From positions 1 to 54,754 of the forward strand of contig JARYMK010000002.1 of assembly GCA_029907165.1 (NCBI GenBank): DNA of 54,754 nucleotides, read 5' to 3'. Below are positions 10,238-20,229 of the stretch, piece after piece; position 1 is the stretch's first letter; every line of letters starts with the position of its first letter. This stretch comes from Anaerolineae bacterium (GTDB lineage Bacteria > Chloroflexota > Anaerolineae > DTLA01). Under the pieces are notes generated by a model. The model was given only the letters and a program-made list of their open reading frames with translations, did not search any database and was not told the origin of the DNA. Both the position numbers and the translations under genes were made by a program.

Positions 10238-10265
10238 GCACGCGCTGCGGTTATGCCAAGTTATG

Positions 10266-11075
10266 TTAGCCCTGTCGCATAGAGTGAAGGATGGCTTCCA
10301 GCACGCCGCCCGCGATGGCCAGCGCCTTGTCCGAGATGGTGAAGCAGTGCTCGCGGGCGGCGCGGGGGTCCACGTCGCCCACCTTCATGTTGGCGTGCAC
10401 GGTCAGCCCATCGTGGAGCAGCCCCCGCAGGACGCCCTTCAGCCGCACGCGCACCGGCTCATTGTCCACATACGCGACGACGTCGCCCACGTCCACCATG
10501 TCGCCGATTTCGCGCACACCGCGGAACACCCCTGCGCAGGGGGCGCGCACCACTCGCTGCTCGGCGTAGCCGCCGACCTCGCCCGGGATTCCCGTGTTGG
10601 GCAAGGCTTGCCCTTGCCAGATCACGCGCCCCAGGGTGTGCCCCCGCATGGTTTCTACCACGGCGTGGACGTCTTCGCCTGCGGTGAACCCCGGCCCCAG
10701 CCCAATGACCAGGGGCGCGTCGGTGATGCGCGTGCCCAGGTTGCGCTTGGCCAGGATGGCGTCCACCACCACATCCGGGCGCAGTTCGCAGATGATGGCT
10801 GCCTCGGGGTCCACGACGACGGGGAGAACGCCCTCGGCCCAGGCGGCCCGAACGCCCTCCGCGCCTTCCACCTTGCGGCCTCGCACGCCGTCCACGACCG
10901 TCTCACCTTCCCAGACGGCCGTGGCGAAGGCTACCTTGCGGCGGATCACGGTGGGGGCGGGGATTTCGGTAACCACGACCTGGAACCCGCAGTTCCACAG
11001 CCGCCAGGCCACGCCCGAAGCCAGGTCGCCGCCCCCCTTCACGACAACGGTAACCGTCTTGCCCAGCACGGTCAT
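10266..11075 (-). CDS. yqeB: YqeB-family protein (selenium-dependent molybdenum hydroxylase system accessory protein, short form equal to the C-terminal half of E. coli YqeB)
   Basis: VVVKGGGDLASGVAWRLWNCGFQVVVTEIPAPTVIRRKVAFA and VVDAILAKRNLGTRITDAPLVIGLGPGFTAGEDVHAVVETMRGHTLGRVI match my recollection of the E. coli YqeB C-terminal region. ATG at 11075 has GGGGAGGTG upstream. Confidence 0.8.
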   Translation of the reverse strand: MTVLGKTVTVVVKGGGDLASGVAWRLWNCGFQVVVTEIPAPTVIRRKVAFATAVWEGETVVDGVRGRKVEGAEGVRAAWAEGVLPVVVDPEAAIICELRPDVVVDAILAKRNLGTRITDAPLVIGLGPGFTAGEDVHAVVETMRGHTLGRVIWQGQALPNTGIPGEVGGYAEQRVVRAPCAGVFRGVREIGDMVDVGDVVAYVDNEPVRVRLKGVLRGLLHDGLTVHANMKVGDVDPRAAREHCFTISDKALAIAGGVLEAILHSMRQG

Positions 11076-11097
11076 TGCGGACACCTCCCCGCTTGCG

Positions 11098-12168
11098 CTA
11101 CGGCTGGATGGTCGGCGTTGGCGGCAATGCGGCGTTGTACCGAGCGGCCAGCGCGGCGAGTTCGGGGTCGTCGGCGTACTCCTCACTGAGGGGGATTATA
11201 CCCGCTCTCGCCGAGATAACGTTGCCCTCGGCGTCAAAGTCCACGGTGATCTCGCCAAGCCACTCGCCGCCATAGCCCGCCTGGCCGATGACGGTGTTGT
11301 TGAGTTGCAGCGTCTCCTGCAGCAGGTCGTAGGAGTGACCTCCGACGATGGCCGTGATGCCGTTTACCTCGGTGGCGATCTTACGGTCCATGACGTTGCC
11401 CAGGTGCGACAGGATGACGACGGCGTCCACCTTGTCGGCGCGGGCCTTGGCGACATACTCGCGGGCGGTCTCCACCGGGTCCTTGGTCGTAATGTTCGTT
11501 GACGGCGGCACGAAGGACTTGAACGTGTCGTCGGCAGGTGTCAGGCCGATGATGGCAACCTTGCGCCCGCCCACATCTTGCACGACGTAAGGCGTGAAGA
11601 CCGGCTTGCCCGAGTCGGCGTACACCAGGTTGGCCGACAGGAAGGCGAACTTGGCCTCGCGCGAGCGGTCCAGGAGTTCCGGGAAGTGCGCCAGGTCGCG
11701 TTCACCGATGGCCATGGCGTTGTACTTCATCAGGTTCATGGCTTCGGTGAGGGCCTTGCCCTGGCTGATGTCGGAGACCGGCTGGCCGAAGAGCGCGTCG
11801 CCCGCGTCCAGGACGAGCAAGTACGGGGTCTTGGCGCGGTAGTTCTTGATGGCGGTAGCCCGACGGGCCACACCCCCCTTGGGGGGTCGTCAGCCGCAGG
11901 GGTCTATGTAGCCCGCAACGTCGGTGGTGTGCAGGATGGTGAGGGTCCACGGGCCGGTGGGCCGTGCGGCGTTGCGGCGGATGAGCGCCTGGGCGGTGAT
12001 GAGCGCCGCGACCACGACCAGCGCCAGTGCAATCGGCGCGATCCAGCGTTTGATTCCGGCGCTTGGGGTGGCCTTCTTCGGTTTCGGCTTGGCTTCGCCC
12101 TTCTTGGCGGTGGATTGGGCAGGGCGAGGGGCCTGCTGCGTCTGTTTCTTCTTGCGTTTCTTGGCCAC
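11098..12168 (-). CDS. Membrane-anchored calcineurin-like metallophosphoesterase / 5'-nucleotidase N-domain protein with one in-frame TGA (11892-11890): candidate selenoprotein (alternatively a pseudogene)
   Basis: ORFs 12168-11890 and 11871-11098 share one frame, separated by TGA plus 6 sense codons. The read-through product is ...LTILHTTDVAGYIDPCG-U-RPPKGGVARRATAIKNYR...LDAGDALFG...AIGERD...LSHLG...GGHSY. GTG start has GAGGTG upstream. Confidence 0.6.
11855..11889 (-). promoter_or_regulatory. Two hairpins directly 3' of the in-frame UGA (SECIS-like)
   Basis: mRNA: UGA CG ACCCCCC-AA-GGGGGGU then GUGGCCC[GUC]GGGCUAC (7-bp stem, G/U-containing apical loop about 26 nt after the UGA). Confidence 0.4.
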
Positions 12169-12332: not shown

Positions 12333-14264
12333 CTAGGGGAGCAGGAACGCAATCATCCAGGCGGCCAGCAGGGTGAACAGCCCGGCAGTCACAAGTTTGA
12401 TGGTGCCGGCGCGCCGGTTGATGAACTGCCCCAGCTGCTCCGACGTCGTGCCCCAGTAGGCCATGAGGAACACGATGACCAGCGGCAGAATGAATGCGAG
12501 GTTGTACACGAGCAGGTAGGCCAACGCCCGCACCCTCAACGCTGGCACGCCGAGGACGAACAGGATGGTGGGCAGGTAAACCTGTCCGGTGCAGGCCAGT
12601 TCTATCAGGGACACCATCGCGCCGGTGATGAGTGCGATCCCTGCGATGGCCCGCGCGTTCGCCCCTTCGCGGATAACTCGGTTGATCCAGCGGCGCATCC
12701 GCGTGGGGAGTTTCAGTTTCATCTCTTCGGGCCGCCCGCGCCGCGCCTGGTACCAGTCGTACAGGCTGCCCAGCGCCAAGAGCAAGCACAGCGCCGCCGT
12801 GAAGCCGTACAGGTAGCGGCTGATGGCCGGCAGGAACGGCAGGCTGGCTAGGAACTTGAGCAGACCCACGCCGACGCCCAGGTAGGTCAGGAAAACGCCC
12901 AGGGCGAACATGCCCCCCACCAGCAGGATGTCGCGGCCCTTGCGCCCCGTGAAGGCCAGGTACGAGATGAAGAACACGATGGTGGCGAAGGCGCACGGGT
13001 TCAGCCCGTCCACCAGACCCGCCGCCACGACCGTGAGCGCGCCGAACGACCGGAAGCGGATCAGGATGCTCTCGCCCGCCTGCGACAGGTCTTCCTGCTC
13101 CTGCCAGTAGGCTTCGCTGCCGGTCGCCGCGTACTTCTTTACGACGTTCTCCAGCGTCTGGACGTTGATGCCCTCGCCCAGCAGGAAATCCGAACCCACA
13201 AACGCCGCGGGCGTGGTGAGGCGCTTGTTCAGCGGCACGCCGGTGCGTTCGCCCAGCCACTCGGCCAGTGCGGCCTGCTCCTTGATGTCGTACTCGTGAA
13301 TCTGCAACTGCGGGTACTTGCTCTGCAGGTACTTCAGGTCGTACTGGGCGCGATCGCACTCGTGGCAACCCACCTGGTAGAAGTAGGCCAGGTGGATGGT
13401 GGACTGCTGGACGGTCGGCGTGCCCGATGGCGCGGCGGGGCCCGTCAGTTTGGGGAAGTCCACGCCGCCCTCGTTCATGTAGTATTCCACCAGCGCGGCC
13501 AGTTGTTCGCGGGCCGCTTGCTCGCCGTGCAGCACATGGTCGCCAACGAAGATGACGGGGAATGCCCCTTCGCCCGTGCCAAACTGCCGCTCCAGCGCCG
13601 TGAGCAGGTCGTAGTCGGCGGGGGATTTCTCCACATCGCGGGCGTCCACCACCAACTGGCGGTCGTATCGCTCCTGCAACGGCCCGAGCACCTCATCCTG
13701 CACGCGGTGGCATTCGGGGCAGAGGCTGCTCCAGAAGAAATACATCTTCACGACGGGGTCGCCCTCGTCGCAGATGTGGCACGCCTTGGGTGTGGGTTTG
13801 ACGCCGGTAGGCGGCCACGTGGCAAGCCCCGTCTGGTCGCCGTATCCCGCGGGCCAGTCCACGCCGCCCTGCGCCACGTAGGCCTGGATCAGCGCGGGCA
13901 GGTTGTCGCGAATCTCGTCGGCCCCGAACAGCACGCGGTCGCCGATGAACAATTCGGGCACCACACCCTTGTCGGGCGGGACGCCGTGCACCTGCTCCAT
14001 GCGCAGCAGGAGTTCGTAGTTCGCTGGCGGGGTGATTTCCACCTTCGCGATTTCCAGTTGCAAGCCGTACTGCGCCTGAAGGGGCGGCAGGACTTGTTCC
14101 AGCACCGTGTGGCAGACCGGGCACGTGTCCGAGTAGAACAGCACGGCGCGGACGACCGGCTGCTGGGCGTGGATGGCCGTCGGCATCAGGGCCAGCGCCA
14201 GGATGGCGATCAGGGTGGACAGGCGGAAGAGGTGTTTCGTTTGGGACACGGTTATAGACTTCAA
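12333..14264 (-). CDS. Secreted triple thioredoxin/glutaredoxin-like domain fused to a CcdA/DsbD-type transmembrane thiol-disulfide electron transporter
   Basis: Signal peptide KHLFRLSTLIAILALALMPTAIHA. Three roughly 110-aa repeats carry CPVC, CPEC and CHEC, plus an extra CHIC. The C-terminal 6-TM domain has LNPCAF and ELACTGQ Cys motifs. TTG start at 14264 has GAGG 6 nt upstream; the 871-aa ORF-track extension overlaps the upstream gene and is spurious. Confidence 0.75.
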   Translation of the reverse strand: MKSITVSQTKHLFRLSTLIAILALALMPTAIHAQQPVVRAVLFYSDTCPVCHTVLEQVLPPLQAQYGLQLEIAKVEITPPANYELLLRMEQVHGVPPDKGVVPELFIGDRVLFGADEIRDNLPALIQAYVAQGGVDWPAGYGDQTGLATWPPTGVKPTPKACHICDEGDPVVKMYFFWSSLCPECHRVQDEVLGPLQERYDRQLVVDARDVEKSPADYDLLTALERQFGTGEGAFPVIFVGDHVLHGEQAAREQLAALVEYYMNEGGVDFPKLTGPAAPSGTPTVQQSTIHLAYFYQVGCHECDRAQYDLKYLQSKYPQLQIHEYDIKEQAALAEWLGERTGVPLNKRLTTPAAFVGSDFLLGEGINVQTLENVVKKYAATGSEAYWQEQEDLSQAGESILIRFRSFGALTVVAAGLVDGLNPCAFATIVFFISYLAFTGRKGRDILLVGGMFALGVFLTYLGVGVGLLKFLASLPFLPAISRYLYGFTAALCLLLALGSLYDWYQARRGRPEEMKLKLPTRMRRWINRVIREGANARAIAGIALITGAMVSLIELACTGQVYLPTILFVLGVPALRVRALAYLLVYNLAFILPLVIVFLMAYWGTTSEQLGQFINRRAGTIKLVTAGLFTLLAAWMIAFLLP

Positions 14265-14272
14265 GGAATGCC

Positions 14273-14800
14273 TCAATCGACCAACCCCAGAATCTCCTCC
14301 AGGCGCGCTCGCTTGTCGGCGAACTCCGCTTCGTAGAGGCGCACGCAGCGGGTTAGTTCCGTCGTCCCCGCCACCAGTTTGCTGGCGAAGACGAAGCACG
14401 TGGGGTCGCCGCACTGCTTGCAGTTCCCGCCCGGCAGGAGTTTGTAGATTTCCATCACAGTGGGCTGGTAGCGCTTCTCGTTGGAAGGCACGATCTCGTG
14501 CCGCCTGTCCCAGACCCTGTTGATCTCGTCCAGAATGCGCTCGGCCACGCGCTGGGCCTCTTGGCGGTCCTCCAAGTTGCTGATGGCGACCTCGTGCGGA
14601 CGGAGGGTATAGCGACGGCCTCCCCGCACCATCGTCAGGATGTGGTTTTCGTGGTCGTAGATGGCATTCTTCCACAGCGTATTGAGGTAGGGCATGACCT
14701 CGCTGATGTCCTCCTGGAGCCGCACAAATGCGCTCCAGCGATCCGATCCTGGGTCGCATGGCGGCGAGATAACTTCCAGGTCGTACTCCTTGCACAGCAT
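14273..14800 (-). CDS. Cytoplasmic Fe-S protein: uncharacterised N-domain plus RnfB/AcsC-type Fe-S cluster domain (CxxCGxxxC)
   Basis: C-terminus has LLPGGNCKQCGDPTCFVFASKLVAG (PF04060-type motif as in the RnfB N-terminus). GGGAGG lies 8 nt before the ATG. The gene stops 8 nt before the Trx-CcdA start. Confidence 0.65.
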   Translation of the reverse strand: MLCKEYDLEVISPPCDPGSDRWSAFVRLQEDISEVMPYLNTLWKNAIYDHENHILTMVRGGRRYTLRPHEVAISNLEDRQEAQRVAERILDEINRVWDRRHEIVPSNEKRYQPTVMEIYKLLPGGNCKQCGDPTCFVFASKLVAGTTELTRCVRLYEAEFADKRARLEEILGLVD

Positions 14801-14889
14801 TGTGCATCCTCCCTACGTGCTTGCATCGGTATGGCTCGGAAATGGGGGCTTGGCCGTAGGCCGGCGACCTGGGTGTGCCGCCCGATTGA

Positions 14890-14917
14890 AGTATACCCCG
14901 TGCTGCCCCGCTGTCAA
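14890..14917 (-). promoter_or_regulatory. sigma70-like promoter in front of the Fe-S / Trx-CcdA genes
   Basis: Minus strand TTGACA-16 nt-TATACT. An ATGCAT-centred imperfect palindrome (TGTCAAATATGCATTGTTCTGA on plus) overlaps the -35. Confidence 0.55.
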
Positions 14918-14960
14918 ATATGCATTGTTCTGAATGTCTCGGCGGCAAAAGTAAAAGCCG

Positions 14961-18192: not shown

Positions 18193-20229
18193 ATGGCGCG
18201 GACCATATTCCCCTTCACAGCCATCGTTGACCAGCAGACCATGAAGCGGGCGCTGATCCTGAATGCGGTGAACCCGCTCATCGGCGGCGTGCTCATTCGG
18301 GGCGAGCGCGGCACCGCCAAGTCCACCGCTGCGCGCGCCCTGGCCGCGCTTCTGCCGGAGATTGACGTTGTCGCCGACTGCATCTACCGCTGCGACCCGC
18401 ACAACCCGGAGACCATGTGCGACTCGTGCCGCGAGCGCCTGGCCAAAGGCGAGACGCTCCCCGTTGGCAGGGCCGTTACCCGTATGGTGGAACTCCCCGT
18501 GAGCGCCACCGAGGATCGGGTCGTGGGCACGCTGGACATTGAGCACGCGCTCAAGACTGGCGAGAAGCGTTTTGAGCCGGGAATCCTCGCCGCGGCCAAC
18601 CGTGGGCTGTTGTACGTGGACGAGGTCAACCTGCTGGATGACCACGTGGTGGACCTGCTCCTGGACTCGGCAGCGATGGGCGTGAACTACGTGGAGCGCG
18701 AGGGGATTTCCTTCTCCCACCCGGCCCGCTTCATCCTCGTGGGGACCATGAACCCCGAAGAGGGCGAACTACGCCCCCAACTGCTGGACCGTTTCGCGCT
18801 CTGCGTGGAAATCAAGGGGTTGACGGACCCGCGCGAGCGCATGGAGGTGCTGGAGCGGCGCATCCAGTTTGACGCCGACCCAGAGGGCTTCCGCGCCGAA
18901 TGGGAGCCGCGCGAGCAGAAACTGTCCAAGGACATCGCTCGGGCGCGTGTGCTCCTGCCGCGCGTCAAGTACGACGACACCGACCTCTACGCCATCGCCC
19001 AACTGACAGCGGCCATGAAGGTGGATGGCCATCGCGCCGACATCGTGATCCTAAAGACAGCCATCGCCAATGCCGCCTTCTCGGGCCGCGATCACATCAC
19101 CGACGAGGACATCCTGCTGGCGGCGGAGTTGGCCCTGCCCCATCGCATGAAGCGCCAGCCGTTCCAGGACGAGGAAATCCGCTTTGAGGAACTGAAGGCC
19201 AAGTTGGAGAAAGTGCAGGCCGAGGCAATGGCCCAGCAGGATGCGAGCCGCTTGGACGCCGAGGCGGACGTAAAAAAAAAAGACCAGGTAACGGAGCCTT
19301 CGCCTAACGTCGGCGGGAGCGGCGTCGCCATCAAAGGGCACGATGCGACCCCGCTGGGGTTCAAGGGCGCGCAAGAAGCCATGCTGGCTGTGGACATCGG
19401 CCCGACCTTCAAACCCCGCCGGTTGAGCACCCCCCTGGATCGCCTCACCCGCAGCACGGCGGGCAAGCGCAGCCTCACCAAGACCAAGCGCAAGCGCGGC
19501 CGCTACGTACAGAGCCTGCCGGCCAACGGCAAGCCCGACGACCTGGCGCTGGACGCAACCCTGCGCCACGCCGCCCTGAGCCGCACGCGCGAGCACAGGA
19601 CCGAGCCCGGCGTCCAGTTGAAGAAATCCGACTGGCAGAAGAAGGTGCGGGTGCGCCGCGCCGCTAATCTCATCCTCTTCGTGGTGGACGCCAGTTGGTC
19701 CATGGCCGCGTCTGAGCGCATAGAGACCACCAAAGGCGCGATCTTCTCGCTGCTGACCGATGCCTACAAGCGGCGCGATCAGGTGGGTCTGGTGGTGTTC
19801 CAGCGCGAGGAGGCCCGGCTGGAGTTGGCCCCCACGTCCAGTGTGGAACTGGCGAAGGAGGCGCTGAAGGACATCCCCGTGGGCGGCAAGACGCCCCTGA
19901 GCCACGGACTGGTGCTCGCCTATCGGGTGATCCAGCAGGCCCGTCGCAAAGACCCCGAGGTGATGCCGCTGATGATTCTCCTGACCGACGGCGCGGGCAA
20001 CGTGTCGCTGACCCGCTTGCCGCCCCAGGAAGAGGCACTGCGCGTGGCGCGGCTCATCGCCCGCAGCGGGATTCGGTCTGTCGTCATCAATATGGAGCAC
20101 CCATCCTTTGACCGCGGCCTGACCCAGGAACTGGCCAACGCCCTGAAGGGGCCGTGCTACACGCTTCGCGAGTTGCGCGCCCAGGAGTTGTACCAGACGG
20201 TGCGCGGCGAACTGGCAGCGGAGCGATAG
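18193..20229 (+). CDS. Mg-chelatase-like AAA+ (ChlI/BchI module) fused via a charged linker to a ChlD-type vWA domain
   Basis: FPFTAIVDQQTMKRALILNAV, Walker A GERGTAKST, Walker B LLYVDEVNLL, then vWA MIDAS ILFVVDASWSM...LLTDGAGN. Confidence 0.85.
   Translation: MARTIFPFTAIVDQQTMKRALILNAVNPLIGGVLIRGERGTAKSTAARALAALLPEIDVVADCIYRCDPHNPETMCDSCRERLAKGETLPVGRAVTRMVELPVSATEDRVVGTLDIEHALKTGEKRFEPGILAAANRGLLYVDEVNLLDDHVVDLLLDSAAMGVNYVEREGISFSHPARFILVGTMNPEEGELRPQLLDRFALCVEIKGLTDPRERMEVLERRIQFDADPEGFRAEWEPREQKLSKDIARARVLLPRVKYDDTDLYAIAQLTAAMKVDGHRADIVILKTAIANAAFSGRDHITDEDILLAAELALPHRMKRQPFQDEEIRFEELKAKLEKVQAEAMAQQDASRLDAEADVKKKDQVTEPSPNVGGSGVAIKGHDATPLGFKGAQEAMLAVDIGPTFKPRRLSTPLDRLTRSTAGKRSLTKTKRKRGRYVQSLPANGKPDDLALDATLRHAALSRTREHRTEPGVQLKKSDWQKKVRVRRAANLILFVVDASWSMAASERIETTKGAIFSLLTDAYKRRDQVGLVVFQREEARLELAPTSSVELAKEALKDIPVGGKTPLSHGLVLAYRVIQQARRKDPEVMPLMILLTDGAGNVSLTRLPPQEEALRVARLIARSGIRSVVINMEHPSFDRGLTQELANALKGPCYTLRELRAQELYQTVRGELAAER
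19272..19281 (+). other. A10 homopolymer inside the CDS at the AAA+/linker junction (potential slippage site)
   Basis: gac GTA AAA AAA AAA GAC. With 11 A (or a -1 shift) the frame reads KKKRPGNGAFA-stop; with 9 A it reads KKKTR-stop. Confidence 0.9.

Follow-up and report, generated by a model that had tools for sequence, protein, structure and literature searches.

Can a single gene furnish both partners of a chelatase-type motor, an I-like ATPase and a D-like protein with a von Willebrand factor A (vWA) domain, by slippage on a run of adenines? The question is raised by a stretch of 54,754 bases (66% GC) from an Anaerolineae bacterium (assembly GCA_029907165.1, contig JARYMK010000002.1, positions 1 to 54,754 of the forward strand), here called the window. 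A fused chlD-type gene of the window carries ten consecutive adenines (A10) between its ChlI-like AAA+ part and its vWA part. A preliminary description of the sequence had proposed that slippage on this run makes an I-like and a D-like protein from the one gene, and comparison with relatives supports the proposal, as 12 of them need a -1 shift at the corresponding tract to make their vWA part. We consider it probable that A10 is a recoding site of a chlD-type (TIGR02442) gene, found here in an in-frame state, and that this one gene could give both AAA+/vWA motor partners. The mechanism has already been published for Mg/Co-chelatase chlD genes and is a rediscovery here, not a new idea. The comparison makes a small but practical addition to published work: in-frame genes, which frameshift-hunting pipelines and annotation treat as plain fusions, retain the tract together with the stops that flank it.

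The A10 tract and its shifted reading frames

Codons 360-363 of the gene read GTA AAA AAA AAA (19270-19281), which places A10 about 30 residues past the complete I-type module and ahead of the linker and the vWA domain. The preliminary description had put these codons behind a complete ChlI-like module, and the domain boundaries agree with it (residue 328 is the last of the module, and residue 494 the first of the vWA domain). Its remark that A/T runs are very rare in this DNA also holds, since no A/T run other than A10 exceeds 6 in all 54,754 bases, and dinucleotide-preserving shuffles lead one to expect only 0.03 occurrences of an A9 pattern in the window. Direct reading likewise returned the two shifted endings that it had given, KKKRPGNGAFA-stop and KKKTR-stop. 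With one A gained, or after a -1 slip, the predicted reading is ...VKKKRPGNGAFA followed by the TAA at 19305-19307, which would give a product of 371 amino acids (aa) and 41.3 kDa; with one A lost, the product would have 365 aa and 40.8 kDa. From the tract to the stop there are 8 codons in the -1 frame and 2 in the +1 frame, and the predicted junction peptides of the products of about 41 kDa are DAEADVKKKRPGNGAFA or DAEADVKKKTR.

According to the working that we propose, standard decoding would give the 678-aa D-like protein (ChlI-like ATPase, linker and vWA), while a slip at the tract would make some of the ribosomes read on in a frame with a stop 8 codons (371 aa) or 2 codons (365 aa) further on. 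This early closure would set free a roughly 41-kDa I-like ATPase. As the cause of the slip, RNA polymerase could add an A to the mRNA or leave one out, and/or the ribosome could shift by -1 on A_AAA_AAA. We infer that slippage takes place in this organism, at some rate, and that both products would join in a complex. Residues G37-T45 and D143/E144 (Walker A/B), the sensor, and D499/S501/S503 of the metal ion-dependent adhesion site (MIDAS) are invariant across 43 homologues. With its Walker and sensor motifs conserved in this way, the N-terminal module could be active as an ATPase when made as a free short product.

Tract length and frame state among relatives

The best 120 full-length homologues from a protein search have 63-71% identity, and those among them with a named source were labelled Chloroflexota; the best homologue of the window protein has 71% identity. 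No exact counterpart of this protein or of two neighbouring ones was found in the assembly collection searched. For the survey of frames, the DNA of 160 loci from genomes and metagenomes was used, and the frames of the AAA+ and the vWA part were compared locus by locus. The close clade, defined by at least 61% identity in the AAA+ part, comprises 27 relatives with DNA, mostly Chloroflexota. An A7-A9 tract stands at the homologous position in 23 of these 27. The vWA part lies in the -1 frame in 12 of them (68-77% identity in the AAA+ part); their junction tract is A9 in 10 genes and A7 in 2, typically as GAC GTA AAA AAA AAG, and the 0-frame stop follows 1-18 codons past the tract, with a median of 2-3 codons. 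Another 11 of the 27 bear A7-A9 and are in frame, as is the window gene with its A10, and the remaining 4 are in frame without any run. Three further in-frame A9 genes were found in independent assemblies. The preliminary description had suggested looking for a run and flanking stops in orthologues, and on both counts the clade bears it out, with A7-A9 in 23/27 and with stops clustered just past the run.

In a neighbour-joining tree the in-frame and -1 states are interleaved, and sister pairs of opposite state occur (L158/L086, L122/L081 and L072/L002), so that single-base indels have switched the layout again and again, with the tract as such maintained throughout. In Escherichia coli, chelatase cassettes frameshift at 10% (A7), 40% (A9) and 63% (A11) (PMC3711429). 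With 40-63% shifting (A9-A11), the ratio of the products would be much alike for both genotypes, in-frame and shifted, and this could explain why the layout flips so freely.

Among more distant homologues, in-frame A10 tracts were seen at 5977-5986 of L008, from a Chloroflexaceae metagenome-assembled genome (MAG), and at 11073-11082 of L019, from a Thermodesulfobacteriota MAG; in L008 the -1 frame stops at once (...AAA AAA AAA TGA). In the subclade that is in frame without a run (the linkers of L001 and L082, protein clusters P0004-P0042 and others), the A-run and the K-K pair are both gone. No standalone chlI was found near the run-less L001 (about 10 kb on each side) or L082 (about 6 kb upstream and 0.2 kb downstream). 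The linker of L082 contains CGAAAC(C/T) repeats, and L078, from a Candidatus Roseilinea MAG, has four tandem CCAAAAU heptamers within the chelatase open reading frame (ORF) at 11393-11462.

Signs of selection on the tract and on the flanking stops

The linker is hypervariable, except that a K-K pair is found at the tract position in 82 of the 120 full-length homologue clusters, with VKKN in 46 of them and V-K-K-N/K as the motif of the alignment. In the close-clade genes the Lys codons of this motif are AAA and the codon before them ends in A, as against 41% AAA among Lys codons, 8% GTA among Val codons and 11% A at third positions elsewhere in the same genes. Because the motif spans the frame junction in half of the clade and is written in disfavoured AAA/GTA codons, its conservation acts at the nucleotide level. 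A conserved basic protein motif was also considered as the cause of K-K-K, and was rejected in view of the frame junction in 12 relatives and the disfavoured AAA and GTA codons.

The stops point in the same direction. Counted in the two frames other than that of the vWA part, over the 24 run-bearing clade genes, alternative-frame stops have a density of 0.092 in the first 10 codons past the run and about 0.025 elsewhere (odds ratio 3.3-4.1, p 1e-8 to 1e-12), with GC content unchanged. These statistics treat related genes as independent, which makes the p-values optimistic, but the stops do arise in differing sequence contexts. For the in-frame genes alone, the enrichment in the -1 frame has an odds ratio of 3.75 (p = 3e-4), and that in the +1 frame stays below significance; their 11 representatives among the relatives have the -1 stop at 0-9 codons, and combining their values by Fisher's method gives p = 3e-4 in the -1 frame versus 0.03 in the +1 frame. 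Early closure is also seen for the third frame of the shifted genes (odds ratio 4.1, p = 8e-4).

Runs of at least 8 A occur in none of the 25 loci with an adjacent standalone chlI, versus 28 of the 134 loci without one; the flag of L130 among the adjacent-chlI loci is an artefact of a split hit. Adjacent-chlI loci whose linker has no run of at least 8 A include L015, L016, L017, L021, L028, L034, L057, L098, L103 and L104.

Weighing the alternatives

Several observations weigh against a recoding site in the in-frame state. The preliminary description had taken the two nearby stops as selected, which is strongly indicated across the 24 clade genes, but weakly from the window alone: relative to the gene's own out-of-frame stop spacing (medians of 32 and 19 codons), their proximity has P = 0.17 (-1 frame) and P = 0.11 (+1 frame), or about 0.02 jointly. 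The stop 8 codons into the -1 frame is at the far end of the range of the in-frame relatives. Structure downstream of the tract is not significant in the window (z = +0.77 over the 70 nucleotides (nt) at 19282-19351, z = -1.0 over 99 nt), and a Shine-Dalgarno (SD)-like GAGG 10 nt upstream of the tract is not conserved, being found in only 5 of 24 clade genes. A10 is absent from all other members of the close clade, with A9 as the modal length in both frame states. Furthermore, 4 clade members and a subclade of 38 of the 120 protein clusters are in frame without a run, and because such members exist, the free I-like product is not obligatory for every member. Many in-frame homologues from Streptomyces, Dehalococcoidia and archaea also lack the run.

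The singular length of the tract raises the possibility that the true genome has A9 and the gene is a classical frameshifted chlD (fs-chlD), the extra A having come from sequencing, polishing or a minority allele in a mixed population; the preliminary description had itself named an assembly error in the homopolymer as an alternative. Standard decoding would in that case give the 365-aa I-like protein, ending at the TAA at 19289-19291, and the D-like one would come from a -1 slip on A_AAA_AAG. Ten-base homopolymers are classic sites of indel errors, and with one A removed the sequence becomes GTA AAA AAA AAG ACC AGG TAA, the exact layout of the relatives, with a stop after 2 codons. It also tells against an original A10 that this TAA falls within a string, AGGTAACGGAG, which the window has in common with L158, an A9, -1-shifted gene in which the same TAA is the functional 0-frame stop. 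Nevertheless, in-frame run-bearing genes are common and come from many independent assemblies, in-frame A10 recurs in L008 and L019, and the window's 21 other homopolymers of 6-7 nt all leave the ORFs intact, so that the assembly shows no sign of being prone to indels, a weak test in that these runs are short. Such a miscall or mixture seems unlikely to us, while having enough in its favour to be kept in mind. From the unique A10, the relatives' layout that returns on removal of one A, and the TAA shared with L158, we infer that the window gene derives from an A9 ancestor of the shifted type by addition of one A, whether as a real mutation or as a homopolymer miscall, and that the TAA at 19289-19291 probably ended the small-subunit ORF in the ancestor. 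The locus would be a two-product recoding site whether the tract is A9 or A10.

If the insertion was real, it might instead have fused both ORFs for good and left a relic, with only the full-length protein used, or with a separate chlI, and with any slippage as unselected noise. The run-less in-frame genes already mentioned show that a fused-only state is viable, and the window's -1 stop is not unusually close. An unselected A10 in a gene of 66% GC should, however, decay fast, whereas the run and the -1 stops are retained in 11 in-frame relatives, K-K is retained in 82/120 in-frame clusters, and the run is built of disfavoured codons, so that we hold a relic to be improbable. Still less credence can be given to phase variation at the DNA level, in which replication slippage would toggle A9 and A10 and switch the vWA part on and off in the manner of a contingency locus. 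A long homopolymer within a coding region would suit such a switch, as would the interleaved states of close relatives, which imply frequent tract indels over evolutionary time. Yet the other product could be reached by slippage in either state, so that nothing would be truly off, and each of the three frames is either in use or closed in an orderly manner; moreover, the published cassettes shift at 10-63% without any change of DNA, and neither surface antigens nor host interaction feature in the context of this gene class.

Likelier route of the proposed slippage

For an in-frame recoding site of this kind, RNA-polymerase slippage is favoured as the likelier main route at A10, in that the tract is longer than the heptamer needed by the ribosome, A9 is preferred whatever the frame, both alternative frames tend to close, and significant downstream structure is lacking in the window and in most of the A8-A10 relatives. 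Clade-wide, the 70 nt past the run do not differ significantly from control segments in structure (mean z -0.55 versus -0.11, p = 0.17). The A7 members behave differently: L004 (3263-3339), L072 (6510-6586) and L078 (11086-11162) have strong hairpins, with z = -1.6, -1.9 and -4.1, 5-8 nt downstream of an A_AAA_AAA in register, and this combination is the signature of a ribosomal -1 shift. The A8-A10 members have a mean z of -0.27 and no strong hairpin (Mann-Whitney p = 0.015 against A7). This suggests that run length is traded against structure, with the ribosomal -1 shift serving short tracts and polymerase slippage serving long ones.

Gene layout and genomic context

The coordinates of the gene and of the elements discussed above are collected in Table 1. 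The 678-aa protein matches TIGR02442, 'putative cobaltochelatase', with 786 bits against a cut-off of 779, and has the Pfam domains Mg_chelatase, AAA_5, AAA_lid_2 (ending at residue 328), VWA and VWA_2. The AAA+ module shows Walker A (GERGTAKST), Walker B (LYVDEVNLL) and the MNPEEG sensor region, and tblastn with each of the two parts, AAA+ and vWA, gave a match in frame 1 of the window.

Table 1. Positions of the chlD-type gene, its domains and the elements around the A10 tract, in window coordinates.
Feature	Position	Strand	Basis and remarks
Fused chlD-type gene	18193-20229	+	ORF list and translation: 678 aa, 75.2 kDa; ChlI-like AAA+, linker and vWA in one frame
ChlI-like AAA+ ATPase module, residues 6-328	18208-19176	+	TIGR02030 BchI-ChlI, positions 1-323 of 337
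Hypervariable linker, AAA+ lid to vWA	19177-19671	+	Alignment of 120 homologues; contains the tract-encoded V-K-K-K motif
A10 tract, candidate slippage site (RNA polymerase and/or ribosome)	19272-19281	+	Read directly; homologous to the relatives' A7-A9 tracts
A_AAA_AAA heptamer in 0-frame register, P-site codon 362, A-site codon 363	19275-19281	+	Candidate -1 ribosomal shift site
-1 frame tail, AGA CCA GGT AAC GGA GCC TTC GCC TAA (RPGNGAFA-stop)	19281-19307	+	Would close the 371-aa I-like product
+1 frame TAA after ...VKKKTR	19289-19291	+	One A lost would give 365 aa, 40.8 kDa
vWA (integrin I-like) domain, residues 494-640	19672-20112	+	Pfam VWA, VWA_2; MIDAS D499-x-S501-x-S503

The gene is neighboured by those of a GNAT acetyltransferase, a DUF4139 protein and an EamA transporter, and the window holds one ChlI-like match. 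Neither a cobalamin riboswitch nor an ORF of cobN size was found in the window, the longest ORF having 958 aa, and no CobN was found among the long ORFs adjoining six clade members. Given these negative results, 'cobaltochelatase' is to be taken as a family label, and the function is only putative. The neighbourhood was not conserved across the clade loci checked, save for DUF4139 in two of them. The context matches that of the 'orphan' Chloroflexi genes of Kuznetsov et al. 2022.

Elsewhere in the window, a cluster of three tRNAs lies at 2526-2786 on the minus strand, and an 871-aa ORF at 12333-14948, also on the minus strand, has several weak glutaredoxin/thioredoxin-like domain matches and would encode an unusual multi-domain redox protein. 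Two long ORFs overlap on the plus strand (10263-11189 and 10594-11502) around a C6 run at 11032-11037; the former has no Pfam match, and the pair could be spurious high-GC ORFs or a frameshifted gene.

Implications

Since the tract and the stops are retained in in-frame genes, the recoding family is probably larger than catalogued and has two interconverting layouts. Methods that detect frameshifts would count the window gene as an ordinary chlD, because they look for a frameshift in the DNA, and annotation of such genes should list two products. More tentatively, many in-frame Chloroflexota chlD-type genes might be recoded in the way of dnaX, with A9/A10 and closed frames freeing an I-type ATPase from what is annotated as a fusion, in-frame and -1 alleles interconverting freely, long tracts working through RNA polymerase and A7 through the hairpin-stimulated ribosome, and the I/D pair serving as an orphan motor without CobN or ChlH. 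The role of an I/D pair with no large chelatase subunit nearby in Chloroflexota is a question that was raised earlier by Kuznetsov et al. 2022.

Comparison with known systems

Class I chelatases make the same two protein types from chlI/bchI and chlD/bchD pairs, but from two genes and without a slippery tract; the window gene has the intact Walker A/B motifs and the MIDAS DxSxS of the class I motors (ChlIDH/CobNST). Antonov 2020 (MBE 37:2268) is said to treat recoding on A_AAA_AAR or poly-A in Mg/Co-chelatase chlD genes. The in-frame layout of a slippery chlD gene was not found described in the literature searched, a scope outside of which that study lies.

The closest published counterpart is the fs-chlD gene. 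Conserved -1 frameshifts have been reported for 23 magnesium-chelatase genes from Pseudomonas, Burkholderia, Delftia, Herpetosiphon and two methanogen genera (Antonov et al. 2013, PMC3711429). A_AAA_AAA and A_AAA_AAG are known shift heptamers (PMC3711429), the A_AAA_AAR site is under strong purifying selection (Atkins et al. 2016, PMC5009743), and Chloroflexi (Anaerolineae, Brevefilum) have fs-chlD without the large subunit or the pathway to B12 or chlorophyll (Kuznetsov et al. 2022, PMC9227772). The window gene shares with these the family (ChlI-like AAA+ and vWA, TIGR02442), a site just past the AAA+ lid, the A_AAA_AAR/poly-A signal by which a small and a medium subunit would come from one gene, a phylum among those reported (Chloroflexi: Herpetosiphon, Anaerolineae, Brevefilum), the 'orphan' state with no cobN/chlH nearby, and a stop soon past the slippery site that closes the small-subunit frame (TAA at 2 and 8 codons in the window). 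It differs in layout, as published fs-chlD genes consist of overlapping ORFs, with a small subunit from standard decoding and a medium subunit from the shift, whereas the parts of the window gene are in one frame and the roles would be reversed; nor was the downstream stimulatory RNA structure of that class found in it. Twelve of its closest relatives, with parts offset by -1, are textbook fs-chlD genes.

The analogy with dnaX that the preliminary description had drawn fits the in-frame layout. In E. coli dnaX (tau/gamma), too, the long product is read in the 0 frame, and a -1 shift on A_AAA_AAG leads to a stop within a few codons; the short protein retains the AAA+ module and assembles with the long one, at an efficiency of about 50% (PMC3711429). 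That gene belongs to an unrelated family, and it relies on an upstream SD-like element and a downstream hairpin as stimulators, neither of which was found or conserved for the window gene. In Thermus thermophilus, dnaX undergoes transcriptional slippage on A9 (cited in PMC3711429). Thermus dnaX and the window gene both have an in-frame long ORF and an A-run longer than the heptamer, although the gene families differ. Larsen et al. 2000 reportedly described for the Thermus gene an in-frame long ORF, heterogeneous mRNAs and shifted frames that end soon past the run. Taken together, Thermus dnaX appears to be the best mechanistic analogue for a hairpin-less A10 tract such as the one described here.

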